In this document: piece by piece, positions 751-22,525 of the stretch
Numbering within the stretch: the first letter of the stretch is position 1
Layout of the letters: every line of letters begins with the position of its first letter
Origin: a virus
Taxonomy: Duplodnaviria; Heunggongvirae; Uroviricota; Caudoviricetes
Strand: one strand, 5' to 3'
DNA length: 23,210 nucleotides
IMG/VR virus record: IMGVR_UViG_2531839232_000010
Made by a program: the position numbers and the translations under genes
Notes under the pieces: model-generated
The model's database searches: none
Seen by the model: only the letters and a program-made list of their open reading frames with translations
What the model was told of the DNA's origin: nothing

Positions 751-1049
751 CGGGCAAAGAGGCAATTATTCATTACCTGGGGACGCATAAGAGCTTCTGT
801 GCACAGGACGTTGCCGCGGTAACAGGTGCAACCGTAACCAGCATAAATCAGGCTGCGGCTAAAATGGCGCGGGCAGGAATCCTGGTCGTTGATGGTAAGG
901 TCTGGCGAACGGTGTATTACCGGTTCGCTACCAGAGAAGAACGGGAAGGAAAGGTGAGCACGAATCTGATTTTTAAGGAGTGTCGCCAGAGTGCCGCGAT
1001 GAAACGGGTATTGAGGGTATATAAAAGAACATCAATGGGTACACAATGA
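747..1049 (+). CDS. ren: Ren (Rex-exclusion relief protein), 100 aa
   Basis: ORF MTGKEAIIHYLGTH...KECRQSAAMKRVL resembles lambda Ren as recalled. ATGA overlap with the P stop, as in lambda. Confidence 0.85.
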   Translation: MTGKEAIIHYLGTHKSFCAQDVAAVTGATVTSINQAAAKMARAGILVVDGKVWRTVYYRFATREEREGKVSTNLIFKECRQSAAMKRVLRVYKRTSMGTQ

Positions 1050-1066
1050 TGAAACAGGTGAGTTGA

Positions 1067-1101
1067 GTTCAAACTGTAGTACAATTCTCTCCAGTTTGAA
1101 C
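1067..1101. promoter_or_regulatory. Perfect 10-bp inverted repeat (GTTCAAACTG, 15-nt spacer, CAGTTTGAAC) between ren and emrE
   Basis: Read directly: 1067-1076 and 1092-1101 are exact reverse complements. It sits 16 bp upstream of the emrE ATG, where lambda has tR2. Function not determinable from sequence. Confidence 0.4.
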
Positions 1102-1116
1102 AGGAAAGAATATGTT

Positions 1117-1449
1117 ATGAACCCTTATATTTATCTTGGTGGTGCAATACTTGCAGAGGTCATTGGTACAACCTTAATGAAGTTTTCAGAAGGTTTTACA
1201 CGGTTATGGCCATCTGTTGGTACAATTATTTGTTATTGTGCATCATTCTGGTTATTAGCTCAGACGCTGGCTTATATTCCTACAGGGATTGCTTATGCTA
1301 TCTGGTCAGGAGTCGGTATTGTCCTGATTAGCTTACTATCATGGGGGTTTTTCGGCCAACGGCTGGACCTGCCAGCCGTTATAGGCATGATGTTGATTTG
1401 TGCCGGTGTGTTGGTTATTAATTTATTGTCACGAAGCACACCACATTAA
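1117..1449 (+). CDS. emrE: Small multidrug resistance (SMR) efflux transporter EmrE, 110 aa
   Basis: MNPYIYLGGAILAEVIGTTLMKFSEGF...LLSRSTPH matches E. coli EmrE from memory; four hydrophobic segments. ATG at 1117 with AGGAAAG upstream; the listed ORF start at 1063 is an in-frame upstream extension. Confidence 0.92.
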   Translation: MNPYIYLGGAILAEVIGTTLMKFSEGFTRLWPSVGTIICYCASFWLLAQTLAYIPTGIAYAIWSGVGIVLISLLSWGFFGQRLDLPAVIGMMLICAGVLVINLLSRSTPH

Positions 1450-1693
1450 AAATAATTTCTTTTAAAAGACTGCAATATGGCGGTTCATATCTTTACATGG
1501 GCCGCTTTTGTTAATGTTTTTAGTTTTTGTGTATTCTTTTGTGCCTTCAAGATTATTGCGTAAGCAAATTGCAATACGATTATTGTTGTATATTCAAGAT
1601 AGTGTGATCGTAATTGTCTTTTTAAATAAAAATTAAACAAAAATTATATCTCACCACTAAGGTTTATAAAAGCATAAGTTAGCAGGTGTCACC

Positions 1694-3220
1694 ATGAAAA
1701 AAGCCATAGCATATATGCGATTTTCATCACCAGGTCAGATGTCTGGCGACTCATTAAACCGACAGAGAAGACTTATTGCTGAATGGTTAAAGGTAAATAG
1801 TGATTATTATCTTGATACCATAACATATGAAGATTTAGGATTAAGTGCATTCAAAGGAAAGCATGCACAATCAGGAGCTTTTTCGGAATTTTTAGATGCT
1901 ATAGAGCATGGTTATATATTGCCAGGAACTACATTGTTAGTTGAAAGTCTGGACAGACTTTCAAGAGAAAAAGTCGGTGAAGCGATTGAACGTCTGAAAT
2001 TGATTTTGAATCACGGTATTGATGTTATAACTCTTTGCGACAATACAGTCTATAATATTGACTCTTTGAATGAGCCATATTCATTAATAAAAGCCATACT
2101 TATAGCACAAAGGGCAAATGAAGAAAGCGAGATAAAGTCAAGTCGGGTTAAATTATCATGGAAGAAAAAACGGCAGGATGCACTGGAATCAGGTACGATT
2201 ATGACGGCGTCTTGTCCGAGATGGCTCTCCTTAGATGACAAAAGAACGGCTTTTGTTCCAGACCCCGACAGGGTGAAAACTATTGAGCTAATTTTTAAAC
2301 TCAGGATGGAAAGGCGCTCATTGAATGCAATAGCCAAGTATTTAAATGATCATGCTGTAAAGAATTTCTCAGGAAAAGAAAGTGCATGGGGGCCTTCTGT
2401 AATTGAAAAATTATTAGCGAATAAAGCTCTGATAGGTATATGCGTACCTTCATATCGTGCAAGAGGGAAAGGGATAAGTGAAATCGCTGGCTATTATCCC
2501 AGAGTCATATCAGATGATTTGTTTTACGCTGTACAGGAAATTCGGTTGGCACCTTTTGGTATTAGCAATAGTAGCAAGAATCCTATGCTAATAAATCTAC
2601 TTCGAACAGTTATGAAGTGTGAGGCTTGTGGTAATACCATGATTGTTCATGCGGTATCTGGAAGTTTGCATGGCTATTATGTTTGTCCGATGAGAAGATT
2701 ACATCGATGTGACAGGCCATCAATAAAGAGAGATTTGGTTGATTATAATATCATTAATGAATTGCTTTTTAATTGTAGCAAAATTCAACCAGTTGAAAAC
2801 AAGAAAGATGCTAATGAAACTTTAGAGTTAAAAATTATTGAGCTTCAGATGAAAATTAATAATTTAATCGTTGCATTGTCTGTCGCGCCTGAAGTTACCG
2901 CTATAGCAGAGAAAATAAGACTATTAGATAAGGAATTACGAAGAGCTTTGGTATCATTGAAAACTTTGAAGAGTAAAGGTGTAAATTCATTCAGTGATTT
3001 TTATGCTATTGACTTAACCAGTAAAAATGGACGAGAGTTATGCCGTACACTTGCCTATAAAATATTCGAAAAAATCATAATTAATACGGATAATAAAACC
3101 TGTGATATCTATTTTATGAATGGCATTGTTTTTAAACACTATCCTTTAATGAAAGTAATATCCGCCCAGCAGGCGATAAGTGCTCTCAAATATATGGTTG
3201 ATGGTGAGGTTTATTTTTGA
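1694..3220 (+). CDS. ybcK: Large serine recombinase (YbcK-like), 508 aa
   Basis: N-terminal resolvase-type motif AYMRFSSPGQ (Y-x-R-x-S-S-x-x-Q, catalytic Ser), central Cys cluster C-x2-C...C...C (zinc ribbon), C-terminal coiled-coil-like region. AT-rich codon usage unlike the lambda-like flanks. Resembles DLP12 YbcK as recalled. Confidence 0.8.
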   Translation: MKKAIAYMRFSSPGQMSGDSLNRQRRLIAEWLKVNSDYYLDTITYEDLGLSAFKGKHAQSGAFSEFLDAIEHGYILPGTTLLVESLDRLSREKVGEAIERLKLILNHGIDVITLCDNTVYNIDSLNEPYSLIKAILIAQRANEESEIKSSRVKLSWKKKRQDALESGTIMTASCPRWLSLDDKRTAFVPDPDRVKTIELIFKLRMERRSLNAIAKYLNDHAVKNFSGKESAWGPSVIEKLLANKALIGICVPSYRARGKGISEIAGYYPRVISDDLFYAVQEIRLAPFGISNSSKNPMLINLLRTVMKCEACGNTMIVHAVSGSLHGYYVCPMRRLHRCDRPSIKRDLVDYNIINELLFNCSKIQPVENKKDANETLELKIIELQMKINNLIVALSVAPEVTAIAEKIRLLDKELRRALVSLKTLKSKGVNSFSDFYAIDLTSKNGRELCRTLAYKIFEKIIINTDNKTCDIYFMNGIVFKHYPLMKVISAQQAISALKYMVDGEVYF

Positions 3221-3573
3221 GTAATAATCACTTTTTCAACCGTGCTATGGTATGAAAGTAAAGTAACTACTATGATATTAACTATCGAGCAAGAATATCC
3301 CCAGGCACTCAACAGGGCGCAGGTCAACGTGAATCGGTCATGACACGACACCGATTTTGCGGAATCAATGTTGCTTATGAATACAACATCCCGCTTAGTA
3401 CATGTTCAACACATCAGCAAATTTTGAACTGGGTGTGGCACTTAACTGAAAAAACATGGATGACACAAAATGTTACTCGTCGCTTCATTGAAGTAGCTTG
3501 TGGATATCACAAGCTAGACTATCGCCAATGATATTCAATTTTTGATTTTTTAGTATCAACCTTCCATAATAAT

Positions 3574-3602
3574 GTCACCGGAGCTTGAACAACTCCGGTG
3601 AC
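3574..3602 (+). terminator. Stem-loop with perfect 10-bp stem (GTCACCGGAG / CTCCGGTGAC) and 9-nt loop; weak T-tract
   Basis: Read directly from sequence. Followed by TTCTGCGC rather than a strong U-run, so terminator activity is uncertain. Confidence 0.3.
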
Positions 3603-3608
3603 TTCTGC

Positions 3609-3630
3609 GCATTTAAGGGGACTTAAATGC
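3609..3630. promoter_or_regulatory. 9-bp perfect palindrome GCATTTAAG-GGGA-CTTAAATGC overlapping the RBS/start of the ylcH-like ORF
   Basis: Read directly; the half-sites are exact reverse complements. Candidate operator or translational-control hairpin. Confidence 0.35.
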
Positions 3631-3725
3631 GACCACAATCTGAACTCCTTACCTTGTCACAGATGCAGAAATGCACCTGCGATGTCTTGCATCCAGCGTT
3701 TGATCTCTGCGGAGGTGAAGCGTGA
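3627..3725 (+). CDS. ylcH: Small Cys-containing peptide (32 aa), YlcH-like by position
   Basis: ATG 3627 preceded by AAGGGGA; translates [32 protein letters not shown]. Its stop overlaps the ybcN GTG start (GTGA). Below the 60-aa cut-off of the ORF track. K-12 has a 33-aa ylcH just upstream of ybcN as I recall. Confidence 0.4.
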
Positions 3726-4177
3726 ACCTCCCACAAGATGGCATCAAATTACATCGCGGTAACTTCACCGCTGTCGGTCAGCAGATCCAGACTTATCTGG
3801 AAGACGGCAAATGCTTTCGCATGGTGCTTAAACCGTGGCGCGAGAGACGCAGTCTTTCCCAGAATGCACTCAGCCACATGTGGTACAGCGAAATCAGTGA
3901 ATACCTCATCAGCAGGGGGAAATCGTTCGCTACTTCAGCATGGGTAAAAGATGCTCTCAAACACACATACCTCGGTTATGAAACCAAGGACCTGGTTGAT
4001 GTCGTAACCGGCGAAATCACTACTATCCAGTCGTTACGCCATACCTCCGATCTTGGTACCGGAGAGATGTATGTCTTCCTGTGTAAGGTTGAAGCCTGGG
4101 CGATGAATATTGGCTGCCACCTGACTATTCCACAGAGCTGCGAGTTCCAGCTGCTGCGTGACAAGCAGGAGGCGTAA
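3722..4177 (+). CDS. ybcN: NinB/Orf-family recombination protein (YbcN-like), 151 aa
   Basis: GTG start with GGAGGT 7 nt upstream; [21 protein letters not shown]...; the [12 protein letters not shown] motif resembles lambda NinB RSLDQNRKLWA. Same length as K-12 YbcN. Confidence 0.8.
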
Positions 4178-6902: not shown

Positions 6903-7360
6903 GCAGAATAACCGCGATTATCTCCGCTCTGCTCATCTGCATCATCGTCTGCCTGTCATGGGCTGTTAATCATTACCGTGATAACGCCATTACCTACAAA
7001 GCCCAGCGCGACAAAAATGCCAGAGAACTGAAGCTGGCGAACGTGGCAATTACTGACATGCAGATGCGTCAGCGTGATGTTGCTGCGCTCGATGCAAAAT
7101 ACACGAAGGAGTTAGCTGATGCGAAAGCTGAAAATGATGCTCTGCATGATGATGTTGCCGCTGGTCGTCGTCGGTTGCACATCAAAGCAGTCTGTCAGTC
7201 AGTGCGTGAAGCCACCACCGCCTCCGGCGTGGATAATGCAGCCTCCCCCCGACTGGCAGACACCGCTGAACGGGATTATTTCACCCTCAGAGAGAGGCTG
7301 ATCACTATGCAAAAACAACTGGAAGGAACCCAGAAGTATATTAATGAGCAGTGCAGATAG
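6899..7360 (+). CDS. Rz: Spanin inner-membrane subunit Rz, 153 aa
   Basis: [44 protein letters not shown]... near-identical to lambda Rz from memory. Confidence 0.95.
7119..7301 (+). CDS. Rz1: Spanin outer-membrane lipoprotein Rz1, 60 aa, embedded in the +1 frame of Rz
   Basis: [24 protein letters not shown]... (lipobox LVVVGC), proline-rich; AAGGAG upstream of ATG 7119. Confidence 0.92.
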
Positions 7361-7391: not shown

Positions 7392-7685
7392 TTATTGTGA
7401 GCAATACACCCGCGCTTCCAGCGGAGTATAAATGCCTAAAGTAATAAAACCGAGCAATCCATTTACGAATGTTTGCTGGGTTTCTGTTTTAACAACATTT
7501 TCTGTGCCGCCACAAATTTTGGCTGCATCGACAGTTTTCTTCTGCCCAATTCCAGAAACGAAGAAATGATGGGTGATGGTTTCCTTTGGTGCTACTGCTG
7601 TCTGTTTGTTTTGAACAGTAAACGTCTGTTGAGCACATCCTGTAATAAGCAGGGCCAGCGCAGTAGCGAGTAGCATTTTTTTCAT
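7392..7685 (-). CDS. bor: Bor outer-membrane lipoprotein (serum-resistance moron), 97 aa
   Basis: MKKMLLATALALLITGCAQQTFTVQNK... matches lambda Bor from memory; lipoprotein signal with lipobox ITGC. Confidence 0.93.
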   Translation of the reverse strand: MKKMLLATALALLITGCAQQTFTVQNKQTAVAPKETITHHFFVSGIGQKKTVDAAKICGGTENVVKTETQQTFVNGLLGFITLGIYTPLEARVYCSQ

Positions 7686-7818
7686 GGTGTTATTCCCGAT
7701 GCTTTTTGAAGTTCGCAGAATCGTATGTGTAGAAAATTAAACAAACCCTAAACAATGAGTTGAAATCTCATATTGTTAATATTTATTAATGTATGTCAGA
7801 TGCGAAGGATCGTCACTG

Positions 7819-7884
7819 TATTCCCGGATTAACTATGTCCGCAGCCCTGACAGGGAAACTCCTCTGCGGGAGTGTCCGGGAATA
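7819..7884. repeat. Nested palindrome: outer 10-bp arms TATTCCCGGA / TCCGGGAATA, inner 6-bp CCGCAG / CTGCGG, central CCCTG-A-CAGGG
   Basis: Read directly. Lies in the bor-ybcV intergenic region, upstream of bor on its coding strand. Confidence 0.5.
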
Positions 7885-7976
7885 ATTAATAACGATGCAC
7901 ACAGGGTTTAGCGCGTACACGTATTGCATTATGCCAACGCCCCGGTGCTGACACGGAAGAAACCGGACGTGATGAT

Positions 7977-8387
7977 TTAGCGTGGAAAGATTTGTGTAGT
8001 GTTCTGAATGCTCTCAGTAAATAGTAATGAATTATCAAAGGCATAGTAATATCTTTTATGTTCGTGGATATTTGTAACCCATCGGAAAACTCCTGCTTTA
8101 GCAAGATTTTCCCTGTATTGCTGAAATGTGATTTCTCTTGATTTCAACCTATCATAGGACGTTTCTATAAGATGCGTATTTCTTGAGAATTTAACATTCA
8201 CAACCTTTTTAAGTCCTTTTATTAACACAGTGTTATCGTTTTCTAACACAATGTGAATATTATCTGTGGCTAGATAGTAAATATAATGTGAGACATTGTG
8301 ACGTTTTAGTTCAGAATAAAACAATTCACAGTTTAAATCTTTTCGCACTTGATCGAATATTTCTTTAAAAATGGCAACCTGAGCCAT
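7977..8387 (-). CDS. ybcV: DUF1398-like uncharacterised protein (YbcV-like), 136 aa
   Basis: [19 protein letters not shown]...[25 protein letters not shown]...; AT-rich. The 136-aa form matches the K-12 YbcV length as recalled. The ORF stays open to 8510 (177 aa), so the true start is uncertain. Confidence 0.7.
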
Positions 8388-8598
8388 TGGTAAAACCTTC
8401 CATGTGATACGAGGGCGCGTAGTTTGCATTATCGTTTTTATCGTTTCAATCTGGTCTGACCTCTTTGTGTTTTGTTGATGATTTATGTCAAATATTAGGA
8501 ATGTTTTCAATTAATAGTATTGGTTGCGTAACAAAGTGCGGTCCTGCTGGCATTCTGGAGGGAAATACAACCGACAGATGTATGTAAGGCCAACGTGC

Positions 8599-8624
8599 TC
8601 AAATCTTCATACAGAAAGATTTGA
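8599..8624. promoter_or_regulatory. 9-bp inverted repeat TCAAATCTT / AAGATTTGA with 8-nt spacer, about 50 bp upstream of ybcW
   Basis: Read directly; sits in the divergent ybcV/ybcW intergenic region. Confidence 0.3.
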
Positions 8625-8672
8625 AGTAATATTTTAACCGCTAGATGAAGAGCAAGCGCATGGAGCGACAAA

Positions 8673-8879
8673 ATGAATAAAGAACAATCTGCTGATGATC
8701 CCTCCGTGGATCTGATTCGTGTAAAAAATATGCTTAATAGCACCATTTCTATGAGTTACCCTGATGTTGTAATTGCATGTATAGAACATAAGGTGTCTCT
8801 GGAAGCATTCAGGGCAATTGAGGCAGCGTTGGTGAAGCACGATAATAATATGAAGGATTATTCCCTGGTGGTTGACTGA
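8673..8879 (+). CDS. ybcW: Small acidic uncharacterised protein (YbcW-like), 68 aa
   Basis: [68 protein letters not shown]; protein-like composition, unlike the equally long antisense ORF 8634-8840. Confidence 0.65.
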
Positions 8880-8915
8880 TCACCATAACTGCTAATCATT
8901 CAAACTACTTAACCT

Positions 8916-8943
8916 GTGACAGAGCCAACACGCAGTCTGTCAC
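8916..8943. terminator. Stem-loop (8-bp stem GTGACAGA / TCTGTCAC, 12-nt loop) between convergent ybcW and ylcI
   Basis: Read directly; no strong U-tract on either strand, so low confidence as a terminator. Confidence 0.3.
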
Positions 8944-9043
8944 TGTCAGGAAAGTGGTAAAACTGCAACTCAATTACTGCAATGCCCTCGTAATTAAGTG
9001 AATTTACAATATCGTCCTGTTCGGAGGGAAGAACGCGGGATGT

Positions 9044-9238
9044 TCATTCTTCATCACTTTTAATTGATGTATATGCTCTCTTTTCTGACGTTAGCCTCCG
9101 ACGGCAGGCTTCAATGACCCAGGCTGAGAAATTTCCGGACCCTTTTTGATCAAGAGCGATGTTAATTTGTTCAATCATTTGGTTAGGAAAGCGGATGTTG
9201 CGGGTTGTTGTTCTGCGGGTTCTGTTCTTCGTTGACAT
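9044..9238 (-). CDS. ylcI: Small basic protein with ribbon-helix-helix-like pattern (YlcI-like), 64 aa
   Basis: MSTKNRTRRTTTRNIRFPNQMIEQINIALDQKGSGNFSAWVIEACRRRL...: basic N-tail, then beta-strand/helix/turn/helix pattern typical of Arc/MetJ/CopG RHH folds. Fold call is by eye. Confidence 0.6.
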   Translation of the reverse strand: MSTKNRTRRTTTRNIRFPNQMIEQINIALDQKGSGNFSAWVIEACRRRLTSEKRAYTSIKSDEE

Positions 9239-9437
9239 AATGTTGCCCCATATTCAGTGTTGCTGATTTGTATTATCTGAAGTTGCTTTTACGTTAATTT
9301 GATGCAGATCAATTAATACGATACCTGCGTCATAATTGATTATTTGACGTGGTTTGATGGCGTAGATGCACGTTGTGACATGTAGATGATAATTATTATC
9401 ATTTTGCGGGTCCTTTCCGGCGATCCGACCGGTTACG

Positions 9438-9449
9438 GGGCGGCGACCT
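9438..9449. other. cosN: cosN: 12-nt cohesive-end sequence GGGCGGCGACCT (terminase nicking site)
   Basis: Exact lambda cohesive-end sequence, preceded by ...CGATCCGACCGGTTACG, which resembles the lambda right end. cosQ-like sequence GGGTCCTTTCCGG lies just upstream (about 9408-9420). Confidence 0.9.
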
Positions 9450-9620
9450 CGCGGGTTTTCGCTATTTATGAAAATTTTCCGGGGAAAATCATGTCGGTAC
9501 TTCTCGAACATAACTATTTGTTTTTTCTAATATCGAATCCGTAAAGGTCCGACATGAAAACGCCTGAAAAAGTCATTTTCGGGCACTTTCATGTCGGACC
9601 CTGTATTTGTTGTGAGACTG
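9450..9620. promoter_or_regulatory. cosB: cosB with three terminase small-subunit binding repeats and an AT-rich bend region
   Basis: Three copies of a CATGTCGG core: AATCATGTCGGTAC (9487-9500), TTTTCATGTCGGACC on the minus strand (9546-9560), TTTCATGTCGGACC (9587-9600). The middle copy is inverted. These differ from lambda R-site sequences as I recall them. Confidence 0.7.
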
Positions 9621-9624
9621 TTTC

Positions 9625-10144
9625 ATGAAGGTTAATAAAAAGAAACTTGCCGAAATTTTCAACGTGGATCCGCGAACGATTGAACGCTGGCAGTCTCAGG
9701 GGCTCCCTTGCGTCTCCGGAGGTGGTAAGGGCGTTGAATCTGTATTTGATACCGCCACGGCAATTCAGTGGTATGCGCAGAGGGAAGCTGATATCGAAAA
9801 TGAAAAACTCCGTAAAGAGGTTGAGGATTACAGGGCTGCCAGCGAGGCAGATCTCCAGCCTGGGACTATTGAGTACGAATGCCATCGACTTACGCGTGCG
9901 CAGGCTGACGCCCAGGAGCTGAAGAATGCCAGAGACTCCGCAGAAGTGGTGGAAACCGCATTCTGTACTTTCGTGCTGTCACGGATCGCAGGTGAAATTG
10001 CCAGTATTCTCGACGGGATCCCCCTGTCGGTGCAGCGGCGTTTTCCGGAACTGGAAAACCGACATGTTGATTTCCTGAAACGGGATATTATCAAAGCCAT
10101 GAACAAAGCAGCCGCGCTGGATGAACTGATACCGGGGTTGCTGA

Positions 10145-10170: not shown

Positions 10171-13851
<3,681 letters not shown>

Positions 13852-15568: not shown

Positions 15569-16594
15569 ATGTCGATGTACACAACCGCCCAACTGCTGGC
15601 GGCAAATGAGCAGAAATTTAAGTTTGATCCGCTGTTTCTGCGTCTCTTTTTCCGTGAGAGCTATCCCTTCACCACGGAGAAAGTCTATCTCTCACAAATT
15701 CCGGGACTGGTAAACATGGCGCTGTACGTTTCGCCGATTGTTTCTGGTGAGGTTATCCGTTCCCGTGGCGGCTCCACCTCTGAATTTACGCCGGGATATG
15801 TCAAGCCGAAGCATGAAGTGAATCCGCAGATGACCCTGCGTCGCCTGCCGGATGAAGATCCGCAGAATCTGGCGGACCCGGCTTACCGCCGCCGTCGCAT
15901 CATCATGCAGAACATGCGTGACGAAGAGCTGGCCATTGCTCAGGTCGAAGAGATGCAGGCAGTTTCTGCCGTGCTCAAGGGCAAATACACCATGACCGGT
16001 GAAGCCTTCGATCCGGTTGAGGTGGATATGGGCCGCAGTGCGGCGAACAACATCACGCAGTCCGGCGGCACGGAGTGGAGCAAGCGTGACAAGTCCACGT
16101 ATGACCCGACCGACGATATCGAAGCCTACGCGCTGAACGCCAGCGGCGTGGTGAATATCATCGTGTTTGACCCGAAAGGCTGGGCGCTGTTCCGTTCCTT
16201 CAAAGCCGTCAGGGAGAAGCTGGATACCCGTCGCGGCTCTCATTCCGAACTGGAGACAGCGGTAAAAGACCTGGGCAAAGCGGTGTCTTATAAGGGAATG
16301 TATGGCGATGTGGCCATCGTCGTGTATTCCGGACAGTACGTGGAAAACGGCGTCAAAAAGAACTTCCTGCCGGACAACACGATGGTGCTGGGGAACACTC
16401 AGGCACGCGGTCTGCGCACCTATGGCTGCATTCAGGATGCGGACGCACAGCGCGAAGGCATTAACGCCTCTGCCCGTTACCCGAAAAACTGGGTGACCAC
16501 CGGCGATCCGGCGCGTGAGTTCACCATGATTCAGTCAGCACCGCTGATGCTGCTGGCTGACCCTGATGAGTTCGTGTCCGTACAACTGGCGTAA
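15569..16594 (+). CDS. E: Major capsid protein gpE, 341 aa
   Basis: MSMYTTAQLLAANEQKFKFDPLFLRLFFRESYPF... matches lambda gpE; same length. Confidence 0.95.
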   Translation: MSMYTTAQLLAANEQKFKFDPLFLRLFFRESYPFTTEKVYLSQIPGLVNMALYVSPIVSGEVIRSRGGSTSEFTPGYVKPKHEVNPQMTLRRLPDEDPQNLADPAYRRRRIIMQNMRDEELAIAQVEEMQAVSAVLKGKYTMTGEAFDPVEVDMGRSAANNITQSGGTEWSKRDKSTYDPTDDIEAYALNASGVVNIIVFDPKGWALFRSFKAVREKLDTRRGSHSELETAVKDLGKAVSYKGMYGDVAIVVYSGQYVENGVKKNFLPDNTMVLGNTQARGLRTYGCIQDADAQREGINASARYPKNWVTTGDPAREFTMIQSAPLMLLADPDEFVSVQLA

Positions 16595-18388: not shown

Positions 18389-19129
18389 ATGCCAACACCA
18401 AATCCTCTGGCACCGGTGAAAGGGGCCGGGACCACACTGTGGGTTTATAACGGGAACGGCGACCCATATGCAAACCCGCTTTCAGACAATGACTGGTCGC
18501 GTCTGGCAAAGGTTAAAGACCTGACGCCCGGCGAACTGACCGCTGAGTCCTATGACGACAGTTATCTCGATGATGAAGATGCGGACTGGGCCGCGACCGG
18601 ACAGGGGCAGAAATCCGCTGGAGATACCAGCTTCACGCTGGCGTGGATGCCCGGAGAGCAGGGGCAGCAGGCGCTGCTGGCGTGGTTTAATGAAGGTGAT
18701 ACCCGTGCCTATAAAATCCGCTTCCCGAACGGCACGGTCGATGTGTTCCGCGGCTGGGTCAGCAGTATCGGTAAGGCGGTGACGGCGAAGGAAGTGATCA
18801 CCCGCACGGTGAAAGTCACCAACGTGGGACGTCCGTCGATGGCAGAAGATCGCAGCACGGTAACAGCGGCAACCGGCATGACCGTGACGCCTGCCAGCAC
18901 CTCGGTGGTGAAAGGGCAGAGCACGACGCTGACCGTGGCATTCCAGCCGGAAGGCGCAACCGACAAGAGCTTCCGTGCGGTGTCTGCGGATAAAACAAAA
19001 GCCACCGTGTCGGTCAGTGGTATGACCATCACCGTGAAAGGTGTTGCTGCAGGCAAGGTCAACATTCCGGTCGTATCCGGTAATGGTGAGTTTGCTGCGG
19101 TTGCAGAAATCAACGTCACCGCCAGTTAA
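18389..19129 (+). CDS. V: Major tail tube protein gpV, 246 aa
   Basis: [33 protein letters not shown]... matches lambda gpV; start set at ATG 18389, not the ORF-track 18359. Confidence 0.93.
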
Positions 19130-19144
19130 TCCGGAGAATCAGCG

Positions 19145-19567
19145 ATGTTCCTGAAAACCGAATCATTTGAACATAACGGCGTGACCGTCACGCTTTCTGA
19201 ACTGTCAGCCCTGCAGCGTATTGAGCATCTCGCCCTGATGAAACGGCAGGCAGAACAGGCGGAGTCAGACAGCAACCGGAAGTTTACTGTGGAAGACGCC
19301 ATCAGAACCGGCGCTTTTGTGGTGGCGATGTCCCTGTGGCATAACCATCCGAAGAAGACGCAGATGCCGTCCATGAATGAAGCCGTTAAACAGATTGAGC
19401 AGGAAGTGCTTACCACCTGGCCCGCGGAGGCAATTTCTCATGCTGAAAACGTGGTGTACCGGCTGTCCGGTATGTATGAGTTTGTGGTGAATGATGCCCC
19501 TGAACAGGCAGAGGACGCCGGGCCTGCAGAGCCTGTTTCTGCGGGAAAGTGTTCGACGGTGAGCTGA
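19145..19567 (+). CDS. G: Tail assembly chaperone gpG, 140 aa
   Basis: MFLKTESFEHNGVTVTLSELSALQRIEHLALMKRQAEQAESD... matches lambda gpG. Confidence 0.93.
   Translation: MFLKTESFEHNGVTVTLSELSALQRIEHLALMKRQAEQAESDSNRKFTVEDAIRTGAFVVAMSLWHNHPKKTQMPSMNEAVKQIEQEVLTTWPAEAISHAENVVYRLSGMYEFVVNDAPEQAEDAGPAEPVSAGKCSTVS
19543..19549 (+). other. Programmed -1 ribosomal frameshift slippery heptamer G GGA AAG
   Basis: GGGAAAG read as G.GGA.AAG in the G frame, 6 codons before the G stop; the -1 frame continues open through 19983. Confidence 0.85.
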
Positions 19568-19983
19568 GTTTTGCCCTGAAACTGGCGCGCGAGATGGGGC
19601 GACCCGACTGGCGTGCCATGCTTGCCGGGATGTCATCCACGGAGTATGCCGACTGGCACCGCTTTTACAGTACCCATTATTTTCATGATGTTCTGCTGGA
19701 TATGCACTTTTCCGGGCTGACGTACACCGTGCTCAGCCTGTTTTTCAGCGATCCGGATATGCATCCGCTGGATTTCAGTCTGCTGAACCGGCGTGAGGCT
19801 GACGAAGAGCCTGAAGATGATGTGCTGATGCAGAAAGCGGCAGGGCTTGCTGGAGGCGTTCGTTTTGGCCCGGACGGGAATGAAGTTATCCCCGCTTCCC
19901 CGGATGTGGCGGACATGACGGAGGATGACGTAATGCTGATGACAGTATCAGAAGGGATCGCAGGAGGAGTCCGGTATGGCTGA
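19549..19983 (+). CDS. T: T segment of the gpG-T fusion (expressed only via the -1 frameshift from G)
   Basis: Open -1 frame (VFDGELSFALKLAREMGRPDWRAMLAGMS...) with no independent RBS or ATG; matches the lambda G-T arrangement. Confidence 0.85.
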   Translation: MFDGELSFALKLAREMGRPDWRAMLAGMSSTEYADWHRFYSTHYFHDVLLDMHFSGLTYTVLSLFFSDPDMHPLDFSLLNRREADEEPEDDVLMQKAAGLAGGVRFGPDGNEVIPASPDVADMTEDDVMLMTVSEGIAGGVRYG

Positions 19984-22525
19984 ACCGGTAGGCGATCTGG
20001 TCGTTGATTTAAGTCTGGATGCGGCCAGATTTGACGAGCAGATGGCCAGAGTCAGGCGTCATTTTTCCGGTACGGAAAGTGATGCGAAAAAAACAGCGGC
20101 AGTCGTTGAACAGTCGATGAGCCGGCAGGCGCTGGCTGCACAGAAAGCGGGAATTTCCGTCGGGCAGTATAAAGCCGCCATGCGTATGCTGCCTGCGCAG
20201 TTCACTGACGTGGCCACGCAGCTTGCAGGTGGGCAAAGTCCGTGGCTGATCCTGCTGCAACAGGGGGGGCAGGTGAAGGACTCCTTCGGCGGGATGATCC
20301 CCATGTTCCGGGGGCTTGCCGGTGCGATCACCCTGCCGATGGTGGGGGCCACCTCGCTGGCGGTGGCGACCGGTGCGCTGGCGTATGCCTGGTATCAGGG
20401 CAACTCAACCCTGTCCGATTTCAACAAAACGCTGGTCCTTTCCGGCAATCAGGCCGGGCTGACGGCAGATCGTATGCTGGTCCTGTCCAGAGCCGGGCAG
20501 GCGGCAGGGCTGACGTTTAACCAGACCAGCGAGTCACTCAGCGCACTGGTTAAGGCGGGGGTAAGCGGTGAGGCTCAGATTGCGTCCATCAGCCAGAGTG
20601 TGGCGCGTTTCTCCTCTGCATCAGGCGTGGAGGTGGACAAGGTCGCTGAAGCCTTCGGGAAGCTGACCACTGACCCGACGTCGGGGCTGACAGCGATGGC
20701 GCGCCAGTTCCATAACGTGACGGCGGAGCAGATTGCGTATGTTGCTCAGTTGCAGCGTTCCGGCGAAGAAGCCGGGGCATTGCAGGCGGCGAACGAGGCC
20801 GCGACGAAAGGGTTTGATGACCAGACCCGCCGCCTGAAAGAGAACATGGGCACGCTGGAAACCTGGGCAGACAGGACAGCACGGGCATTCAAATCCATGT
20901 GGGATGCGGTGCTGGATATTGGTCGTCCTGATACCGCGCAGGAGATGCTGATTAAGGCAGAGGCCGCGTTTAAGAAAGCGGACGATATCTGGAATCTGCG
21001 CAAGGATGATTATTTTGTTAACGATGAAGCGCGGGCGCGTTACTGGGATGATCGTGAAAAGGCCCGTCTTGCGCTTGAAGCCGCCCGAAAGAAGGCTGAG
21101 CAGCAGAGTCAACAGGACAAAAATGCGCAGCAACAGAGCGATACCGAAGCGTCACGGCTGAAATATACCGAAGAGGCGCAGAAGGCTTACGAACGCCTGC
21201 AGACGCCGCTGGAGAAATATACCGCCCGTCAGGAAGAACTGAATAAGGCACTGAAAGACGGGAAAATCCTGCAGGCAGATTACAACACGCTGATGGCGGC
21301 GGCGAAAAAGGACTATGAAGCGACGCTGAAAAAGCCGAAACAGTCCGGCGTGAAGGTGTCTGCGGGCGATCGTCAGGAAGACAGTGCTCATGCTGCCCTG
21401 CTGACGCTTCAGGCAGAACTCCGGATGCTGGAGAAGCATGCCGGAGCGAATGAGAAAATCAGCCAGCAGCGCCGGGATTTGTGGAAGGCAGAAAGTCAGT
21501 TCGCGGTACTGGAGGAGGCGGCACAACGTCGCCAGCTGTCCGCACAGGAGAAATCCCTGCTGGCGCATAAAGACGAGACGCTGGAGTACAAACGCCAGCT
21601 GGCTGTACTTGGCGACAAGGTCACCTATCAGGAGCACCTGAACGCGCTGGCACAGCAGGCGGATAAATTCGCACAGCAACAACGGGCAAAACGGGCCGCC
21701 ATTGATGCAAAAAACCGGGGGCTGACTGACCGGCAGGCAGCGCGGGAAGCCACGGAACAGCGCCTGAAGGAACAGTATGGCGATAATCCTCTGGCGCTGA
21801 ATAACGTCATGTCAGAGCAGAAAAAGACCTGGGCAGCTGAAGACCAGCTTCGCGGGAGCTGGATGGCAGGCCTCAGGTCAGGCTGGAGTGAGTGGGAAGA
21901 GAGCGCCACGGACAGTATGTCGCAGGTTAAAAGTGCTGCCACGCAGACCTTTGATGGTATTGCACAGAATATGGCGGCGATGCTGACCGGCAGTGAACAG
22001 AACTGGCGCAGCTTCACCCGTTCCGTGCTGTCCATGATGACAGAAATTCTGCTTAAGCAGGCAATGGTGGGGATTGTCGGAAGTATAGGCAGCGCCATTG
22101 GCGGCGGCGCATCAGCGTCAGGCGGTACAGCCATTCAGGCAGCTGCGGCGAAATTCCATTTTGCGGCCGGAGGGTTTACGGGAACCGGCGGCAAATATGA
22201 GCCAGCGGGGATTGTTCACCGTGGTGAATTTGTCTTCACGAAGGAGGCAACCAGCCGGATTGGCGTAGGAAATCTTTACCGGCTGATGCGCGGCTATGCC
22301 ACCGGCGGTTATGTCGGTACACCGGGCAGCATGGCGGACAGCCGGTCGCAGGCGTCCGGGACGTTTGAGCAGAATAACCATGTGGTGATTAACAACGACG
22401 GCACGAACGGTCAGATAGGGCCACAGGCACTGAAGGCGGTTTATGACGTAGCCCGTAAGGCGGCAATGGATGTTGTGACCGGGCAGATGCGCGATGGTGG
22501 TCTGTTCTCCGGAGGTGGACGATGA
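19976..22525 (+). CDS. H: Tail tape-measure protein gpH, 849 aa
   Basis: MAEPVGDLVVDLSLDAARFDEQMARVRRHF...; long, Ala/Gln-rich and helical; lambda H is 853 aa as I recall, so a small indel. Confidence 0.93.
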   Translation: MAEPVGDLVVDLSLDAARFDEQMARVRRHFSGTESDAKKTAAVVEQSMSRQALAAQKAGISVGQYKAAMRMLPAQFTDVATQLAGGQSPWLILLQQGGQVKDSFGGMIPMFRGLAGAITLPMVGATSLAVATGALAYAWYQGNSTLSDFNKTLVLSGNQAGLTADRMLVLSRAGQAAGLTFNQTSESLSALVKAGVSGEAQIASISQSVARFSSASGVEVDKVAEAFGKLTTDPTSGLTAMARQFHNVTAEQIAYVAQLQRSGEEAGALQAANEAATKGFDDQTRRLKENMGTLETWADRTARAFKSMWDAVLDIGRPDTAQEMLIKAEAAFKKADDIWNLRKDDYFVNDEARARYWDDREKARLALEAARKKAEQQSQQDKNAQQQSDTEASRLKYTEEAQKAYERLQTPLEKYTARQEELNKALKDGKILQADYNTLMAAAKKDYEATLKKPKQSGVKVSAGDRQEDSAHAALLTLQAELRMLEKHAGANEKISQQRRDLWKAESQFAVLEEAAQRRQLSAQEKSLLAHKDETLEYKRQLAVLGDKVTYQEHLNALAQQADKFAQQQRAKRAAIDAKNRGLTDRQAAREATEQRLKEQYGDNPLALNNVMSEQKKTWAAEDQLRGSWMAGLRSGWSEWEESATDSMSQVKSAATQTFDGIAQNMAAMLTGSEQNWRSFTRSVLSMMTEILLKQAMVGIVGSIGSAIGGGASASGGTAIQAAAAKFHFAAGGFTGTGGKYEPAGIVHRGEFVFTKEATSRIGVGNLYRLMRGYATGGYVGTPGSMADSRSQASGTFEQNNHVVINNDGTNGQIGPQALKAVYDVARKAAMDVVTGQMRDGGLFSGGGR

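Follow-up and report, generated by a model that had tools for sequence, protein, structure and literature searches.

What brought a drug-efflux gene and a large serine recombinase gene together between ren and the nin genes of a lambda-like prophage? We addressed this question in a 23,210-nt stretch of tailed-phage DNA (Caudoviricetes; IMG/VR record IMGVR_UViG_2531839232_000010), referred to throughout as the window, in which emrE and ybcK, the latter encoding a 508-aa large serine recombinase (LSR), lie in an AT-rich insert. A preliminary description of this DNA had proposed that the two genes may form a single self-contained cassette, integrative or invertible, with inverted repeats near its edges, and that this cassette brought emrE into the prophage. 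Comparison with other phages and genomes points to a different history, to which we give a probability of about 0.6. The insert appears to be composite cargo in a general slot, and ybcK a ~1.8-kb LSR-only insertion unit that would once have interrupted an antirepressor-like gene and now lies stranded next to emrE.

The window matches Escherichia coli O157:H7 chromosomes at 100% identity. RefSeq places an integrase, an excisionase and a truncated replication gene left of the window, and within it the order is P, ren, emrE, a small open reading frame (ORF), a "recombinase family protein", a YbcN-family protein, NinE, RusA, Q and lysis genes. The comparison with lambda on which the preliminary description was founded is correct, as ninB lies 73 bp after ren in that phage. 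The low GC content that it reported is likewise confirmed, with a fraction of 0.53 across P and ren, 0.39 at 1014–1457, 0.35 at 1458–3286, 0.43 at 3287–3539 and 0.50 in the backbone from 3540. The limits of the insert are not 1050–3720, however; it extends from ~1014–1022 to 3539, and 3540–3721 is conserved backbone.

These limits were placed by comparing the slot in seven sequences, namely phage 82, three sequences with other cargo (two prophages and a phage) and three emrE-ybcK variants. Backbone homology resumes at 3540–3542 in all seven, a point that coincides with the −35 hexamer (3540–3547) of a putative promoter annotated in phage 82 (TTGATT at 3542–3547 and CATAAT at 3565–3570 in the window). 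On the left, homology to the phages with alternative cargo stops at 1013–1014 inside ren, and homology to lambda at 1022; the last ~10 ren codons are supplied by each type of cargo and so differ. Between the same joints other members carry DUF4145 and theta genes, acyltransferase and lipoprotein genes, or NACHT and antirepressor genes, and lambda represents an empty slot of 73 bp. Because the outer junctions are common to unrelated cargos, the ren-nin stretch is, judging from these alignments, a general cargo ("moron") slot in lambdoid phages of the DLP12/phage-82 type, with compositionally distinct DNA between conserved backbone genes that is replaced by other cargo in sister phages. The parts of the slot and its borders, all on the + strand, are as follows.

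747–1049, +: ren; backbone homology with lambda and the alternative-cargo phages stops at 1013–1022, near codon ~89.
1014–1504, +: emrE module, made up of the ren tail, leader hairpin, emrE coding sequence and intrinsic terminator.
1505–3286, +: ybcK unit, a putative LSR-only insertion unit whose left terminus falls immediately before CTTTTG at ~1505.
1694–3220, +: ybcK, encoding the 508-aa large serine recombinase (Pfam, alignment and AlphaFold2 model).
3284–3320, +: antirepressor-like gene remnant, 37 bp of the P22AR_C part, 89% identical to L225 3833–3869.
3321–3539, +: O157-clone filler of 219 bp, present in 308 genomes, all at least 99% identical.
3540–3721, +: conserved backbone closing the cargo slot, with the putative promoter, palindromes and the start of a small orf33 homologue (3627–3725).
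3722–4177, +: ybcN (orf151, NinB-like), the first backbone gene of the nin region.

A 63-aa ORF in the filler (3340–3531) matches no family, and the filler is without a RefSeq gene; an Rfam search of the whole window returned zero families.

Both genes named in the preliminary description are confirmed by Pfam matches. emrE (1117–1449, 110 aa) matches PF00893 Multi_Drug_Res at 2e-35 over residues 3–94 and carries the RefSeq name EmrE. Its product has a glutamate at position 14 (within MNPYIYLGGAILAEV), and by profile and Glu14 it is a small multidrug resistance (SMR) pump. The gene is followed by an intrinsic terminator, with a stem at 1479–1506 and then a run of T.

Whether emrE and ybcK travel together was examined in 5,426 complete E. 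coli genomes. The junction between them is present in 1,401 of these genomes, and the pair is also found in 12 sequenced phages. In ~2,290 genomes, by comparison, emrE occurs without ybcK at ~89% identity, in a match that ends exactly at window position 1457. The example inspected (L008; NZ_CP183117 2437605–2450023) has emrE-ybcL-ybcM between fliE and a truncated yedK, together with IS1, and the stretch corresponding to window 1040–1457 recurs there. On the 3' side of ybcM it retains scraps of the nin promoter segment and of K-12-like backbone near quuD. This locus is an old prophage remnant from which ybcK was lost or in which it was never present, and the other ybcK-less copies probably lie at the same fliE-side locus, of which this is the one example inspected. 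Compared with it, K-12-like DNA is longer by 2,096 bp, in which ylcJ and ybcK lie. The reverse arrangement is seen in IMG/VR, where the start of ybcK is carried by 80 contigs. All of those with enough flank read ren-emrE-ybcK, at the same junction, except L165, in which a ybcK of 89% nucleotide identity lies between ren and the nin promoter without emrE and with different DNA on both sides. Homologues of YbcK at 40–61% identity are also found without emrE in other Enterobacterales. The two genes are thus separable in these records, which undercuts both the single cassette and the idea that it carried emrE into the prophage, since the inserted unit excludes emrE. Several O157:H7 genomes match the emrE-ybcK or ylcJ region in two places (NZ_CP033605.1, for instance, at 1561265 and 2969076), which suggests a second prophage with an emrE-ybcK module in one chromosome.

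The inverted repeats that had been put forward as cassette edges do exist at 1067–1101 and 3574–3630, although they do not mark the ends of a cassette. The left hairpin (1067–1101) is imperfect, with 13-nt arms and a weak z score of −1.9; it sits in the emrE leader and is also kept in the ybcK-less copy in L008. The right palindromes (3574–3602 and 3608–3631) are strong, with a z score of −8. The first of them (3574–3602) corresponds to the palindrome annotated in phage 82 as "possible regulator-binding", and the right-hand repeat is shared by phage 82 and all the alternative-cargo phages examined. The left and right repeats are independent local hairpins and not paired terminal repeats. A repeat search of 900–3900 for terminal repeats of the whole insert gave only pairs at chance level. 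The best edge-to-edge pair, a weak inverted match of 16 nt (1065–1080 with 3632–3647), lies partly in the backbone and is one of 95 inverted pairs in 3 kb.

Taken together, these observations leave the integrative or invertible cassette, with hairpin ends and moved or flipped by YbcK, hardly tenable. It would account for the adjacency of the genes in so many genomes and in the 12 phages, for the AT-richness of both, and for the weak 16-nt match at the edges. Against it, each gene occurs without the other, the right hairpins and the 3632–3647 arm belong to backbone shared with phage 82 and the alternative-cargo phages, the left hairpin accompanies emrE where ybcK is absent, and all other cargos in the slot share the outer junctions. 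Junction mapping, which the preliminary description had named among its checks, found no recombinase-associated repeats at these edges. No sign of inversion was seen in the inspected matches, all colinear with their flanks, although inversion was not tested directly. The preliminary description had also allowed that a position fixed among relatives would speak against it, and within E. coli ybcK stands at the same junction beside emrE in all genome rows and phage records inspected.

If the recombinase did not bring emrE, what is it doing in the slot? The catalytic motif, zinc ribbon and coiled coil noted earlier for the protein were all recovered. Pfam matches are Resolvase (5e-19, residues 4–161), Recombinase PF07508 (2e-14) and Zn_ribbon_recom PF13408 (8e-8). 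Across 21 aligned homologues, with identities as low as 29%, the residues R9, S11, D87, R88 and R91 are invariant, as are the zinc-ribbon cysteines C309, C312, C331 and C339. An AlphaFold2 model (mean predicted local distance difference test score of 79.6) contains helices at 373–397 and 402–427 that form a predicted coiled coil, and beyond this coiled coil (~373–427) the C-terminal extension is beta-rich. With this predicted model as the query, the best Foldseek matches are the full-length SPbeta SprA, phiC31, Bxb1 and A118 integrases, and the E-values for full-length matches to the SprA, phiC31 and Bxb1 structures range from 5e-17 to 1e-12. A single-sequence search of the PDB gave zero matches, and the solved integrases were reached by the family profile only. 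That profile, in the comparison with characterised LSRs that had been called for, matches A118 integrase (9e-16, residues 37–319) and SprA (2e-11), and the TP901-1 catalytic domain was also matched. By domains, catalytic residues and predicted fold, YbcK is an intact large serine recombinase. Because the viable phages that carry ybcK also encode tyrosine Int/Xis, YbcK is not their integrase. We found no published functional test of YbcK in the literature; the mentions found are a sabinene-tolerance screen, in which YbcK reportedly appears, a study of Rho terminators and an example of domain prediction.

One answer to this question would be that ybcK is what is left of a phage integrase, inactive and slowly decaying. 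Such a relic would suit a gene that is transcriptionally insulated, and ybcK lies downstream of the intrinsic terminator after emrE, with a Rho-dependent terminator reported in its 5' leader in K-12 (PMC4150792). The gene is also dispensable for the host, because it is disrupted by IS1203 in one O157:H7 strain (NZ_CP038360.1) and a deletion has produced an emrE'-'ybcK fusion in another E. coli strain (L009 1918–2890). Decay is not what the sequences record, however. The ORF is full-length in all four E. coli alleles compared, and 39 synonymous against 11 non-synonymous changes separate two allele groups, giving a ratio of non-synonymous to synonymous substitution rates (dN/dS) of ~0.07. The catalytic and zinc-binding residues are conserved as described above, and the gene is kept in viable phages at 97.8–99.6% protein identity. 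By these measures ybcK is under purifying selection, and a decaying relic is most unlikely.

A more informative answer comes from the ends of the ybcK unit. In the window the unit holds a small ylcJ-like ORF (1514–1636) ahead of ybcK and retains 3' flank to +66; in relatives the full unit runs from about −187 to +124 relative to ybcK. L165, the window and K-12-like DNA all share one left terminus, to the base. Beyond it lies an antirepressor-like gene in L165, whereas the window and K-12-like DNA have the emrE terminator there. In L165 ybcK is preceded by the 5' portion of this Bro-N/antirepressor-like gene, which runs, with a frameshift, to ...CACTGATAACGAACTT, and the ybcK unit begins CTTTTTATAC... 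The left junction, a candidate left attachment site (attL), reads ...CACTGATAACGAACTT / CTTTTTATACTG..., with the slash marking the joint. In L007-type E. coli phages the antirepressor-like gene is picked up again, in its 3' (P22AR_C) part, 124 bp beyond the ybcK stop codon, and the right junction in L007, a candidate attR, reads ...GGATGCTGGCG / TTCTCGTTCTAG... When the left flank of L165 and the right flank of L007 were joined in silico, the product was contiguous at 88–92% identity in 259 E. coli genomes, where the gene is annotated as an intact P22AR C-terminal-domain gene of 204 aa. The inspected genome, L225, has the slot order P, ren', NACHT, antirepressor-like gene, hypothetical gene, ybcN. 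The intact gene of L225 (NZ_CP027368 76220–76834) provides a candidate attB. The 3' part in L007 starts 59 bp upstream of the L165 break, and the two 59-bp copies are 91.5% identical.

These junctions are consistent with a locus assembled from three or more pieces with separate histories: emrE with its leader and terminator, the ~1.8-kb ybcK unit, and debris consisting of the 37-bp remnant and the O157 filler. The ybcK unit would have entered by insertion into the antirepressor-like gene (Bro-N plus P22AR_C). Later rearrangements would then have put emrE in place of the 5' half of that gene and, in O157, removed most of the 3' half, while whole cargos were presumably swapped between phages through ordinary recombination in the conserved flanks. 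YbcK itself may have made the insertion, leaving the present copy stranded. By analogy with the LSR family, dimers of YbcK would bind two att sites and synapse via the coiled coil, Ser11 would make double-strand breaks with a 2-bp stagger, and rotation of subunits followed by religation would exchange the strands. The earlier suggestion that the recombinase marks mobile DNA is borne out in part, by a single left terminus joined to two flanks and by a split gene that is intact elsewhere, although no movement is apparent within E. coli.

Several findings weigh against an insertion by YbcK. The position of ybcK is invariant within E. coli and its left neighbour constant, and an empty ybcK site in the P22AR-type context was found in none of the 5,426 genomes. 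Both antirepressor halves around ybcK were not found in any one genome, so the insertion is rebuilt from two lineages; no L165-type junction was found in the complete E. coli genomes, and a single inspected context underlies the count of 259 intact genes. The 59-bp overlap of the flanks is not predicted by a simple 2-bp LSR crossover. At the ends of the 2.1-kb K-12-like segment absent from L008, inverted and direct repeats are no better than those in shuffled sequence, and the right end of the unit is ragged, falling at +17, ~+40–70 or +124 according to lineage. A moron moved by illegitimate recombination could yield the same pattern without YbcK activity, and strong purifying selection on an apparently immobile copy is unexplained by a purely selfish element.

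Much of this would be expected if ybcK were an ordinary moron, that is, a promoter-gene-terminator unit shuffled by illegitimate or homologous recombination without YbcK and kept because it is useful. We consider this a serious possibility, albeit less probable than not. Purifying selection on a positionally constant ybcK suggests that YbcK is useful to the phage or the lysogen; it might offer a second route of integration, resolve concatemers, or recombine a target in the host or a rival phage. Nearby partial gene duplications would then be by-products of mosaic joints. The ragged right ends and the lack of symmetric ends on the K-12-like segment fit such a moron, and the slot holds other morons, including defence-type NACHT and SIR2 genes. 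What it does not readily explain is the one left terminus joined to two unrelated left flanks. As for a defence role, PADLOC models gave no match at E ≤ 0.01 to YbcK, nor to EmrE, Ren or the 63-aa ORF.

Relatives of YbcK in other Enterobacterales bear on the choice between a moron and an insertion unit. In one pair of loci (L032 9778–11583 and L040 9780–11583), the only homology is an LSR stretch of 1,808 bp, from −221 to +59, at 93.9% identity. The first is an element of Pantoea dispersa that carries an AAA_25 replication-type gene along with metabolic cargo, and the second a lambdoid prophage of Candidatus Pantoea alvi, where the stretch has an intact P gene on one side and a P fragment on the other. 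The shared 1.8-kb stretch suggests that the recombinase gene can relocate alone. Two more pairs, at 83% and 77% identity, share only the LSR gene and 70–130 bp upstream. In five loci the LSR segment is bracketed by diverged (68–92%) direct repeats of an interrupted gene, the genes being DUF1367, lambda P, DUF2280, a pilV-like gene and an AAA_25 gene. The repeat copies are located as follows.

L023: bracketing direct repeats at 7623–7851 and 10609–10831.
L040: bracketing direct repeats at 9281–9657 and 12216–12592.
L042: bracketing direct repeats at 9273–9519 and 16149–16394.
L021: bracketing direct repeats at 7013–7332 and 10970–11291.
L032: bracketing direct repeats at 8203–8996 and 18490–20503.

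The upstream copy ends 150–1,000 bp before the LSR gene, the downstream distance is 0.7–8.6 kb, and long direct repeats are few elsewhere in these ~450 kb. In all five loci the LSR is the first gene after the upstream copy, save for one small intervening gene in one locus. Both this arrangement and the near-identical LSR-only units in unrelated elements speak against an ordinary moron. In its favour, the YbcK homologue in ~10 other loci is the last gene of a prophage or island and adjoins host DNA such as ssrA or lepA, which is the usual position of an integrase. A single Campbell-type scheme for the duplications was considered and set aside, as the intact copy is not always on the same side of the LSR, preceding it in some loci and following it in others. 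Also rejected was a 24-nt motif at the borders of the Pantoea modules, CCGCTTTGTGCCAGAAGCGGACAT, as an att site. It is a generic palindrome resembling repetitive extragenic palindromic (REP) elements across Pantoea intergenic regions, and it recurs at many positions in L031, L032, L034 and L035. In two species the YbcK homologue is located 260–285 bp downstream of a gene for an SOS-response-associated peptidase (SRAP; yedK-like; L027 8992–9741, L030 9107–9745), and a yedK-like gene also borders the E. coli fliE-side remnant. This SRAP gene may be an integration target or cargo of the mobile element.

A broader proposal, and one that we regard as speculative and rather unlikely, is that the YbcK family constitutes a class of minimal LSR-only elements of ~1.8 kb. 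Each would comprise the gene with ~200 bp upstream and 60–120 bp downstream, and would hop among Enterobacterales phages, plasmids and islands into genes such as those for the antirepressor, lambda P, DUF1367, DUF2280 and pilV. The E. coli ybcK would then have begun as an element intervening in the antirepressor gene, and its excision could have restored an intact gene, in the manner of a switch.

The slot itself offers further observations. The nin promoter/palindrome segment (window ~3578–3692) occurs twice in one prophage, at L225 2833–2949 and from 4301 onward, bracketing separate cargo modules, and a degraded copy lies 3' of ybcM in the fliE-side remnant (L008 8008–8154); this segment may be a recombination hot spot for adding cargo. 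Defence-type genes (NACHT, SIR2_2, AIPR) are present in the slot or beside YbcK homologues (L225 858–2753, L023 3755–5695, L036 13320–15299), and the ren-nin slot also gathers candidate anti-phage genes. Elsewhere in the window, a second AT-rich cargo stretch (7392–9600, GC fraction 0.31–0.43) is found between the Rz-like and small terminase genes, with a Bor-like lipoprotein ORF (7392–7685, − strand), a 177-aa ORF (7977–8510, − strand) and several short ORFs.

For emrE, the outcome is that a drug-efflux gene rides in a general phage cargo slot and would be spread by ordinary phage recombination and not by a dedicated recombinase. For ybcK, it is that the best-studied bacterium and viable lambda-like phages maintain a conserved, intact, predicted site-specific recombinase, for which separability, a defined terminus and a split gene together supply concrete candidate attL, attR and attB sequences. 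Should ybcK prove to be a minimal LSR-only mobile element, it would represent a new small class of serine-recombinase elements, and such elements may supply compact integrases as genetic tools.

The gene pair was already known from the DLP12 prophage of K-12, to which the locus is closely similar. The order ren-emrE-small ORF-ybcK is the same, nucleotide identity is 97% over window 836–3259, and ybcN, ninE, ybcO, rusA and ylcG are shared backbone. DLP12 reads emrE-ylcJ-ybcK-ybcL-ybcM, whereas the O157 copy lacks ybcL and ybcM and has the 37-bp remnant and 219-bp filler in their place; its antiterminator is a 229-aa protein, Q in RefSeq, and not quuD. With the phage large serine integrases (A118/LI, SPbeta SprA, phiC31, Bxb1 and TP901-1) YbcK shares the four-part architecture and catalytic residues. 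Its identity to them is only 14–20%, however, its phage uses tyrosine Int/Xis, and ybcK is in the middle of the early-right region and not at a prophage end. Closer in genetic logic are the gene-intervening LSR elements of Bacillus subtilis, skin with SpoIVCA in sigK and SPbeta with SprA in spsM, where an LSR-bearing insert likewise splits a gene that is intact elsewhere. The skin and SPbeta elements are prophage-like, of 48–135 kb, and their excision is developmentally regulated. The ybcK insert, by contrast, is ~1.8 kb without any other clear gene, and its target gene in the window is destroyed and cannot be reconstituted. Tn4451 (TnpX), Tn5397 (TndX) and the IS607 family resemble it as small mobile units that use a serine recombinase with no separate integrase, and an LSR serving as a transposase would suit the near-identical LSR-only units in unrelated contexts. 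The TnpX and TndX elements carry cargo and are at least 6 kb, and IS607 encodes a small serine recombinase with a different DNA-binding domain. Lambdoid morons, finally, share with this locus the AT-rich insert between conserved genes, its own terminator, and its replacement by other cargo in sister phages; the ybcK locus departs from them in that one of its cargo genes is a site-specific recombinase with a defined terminus.

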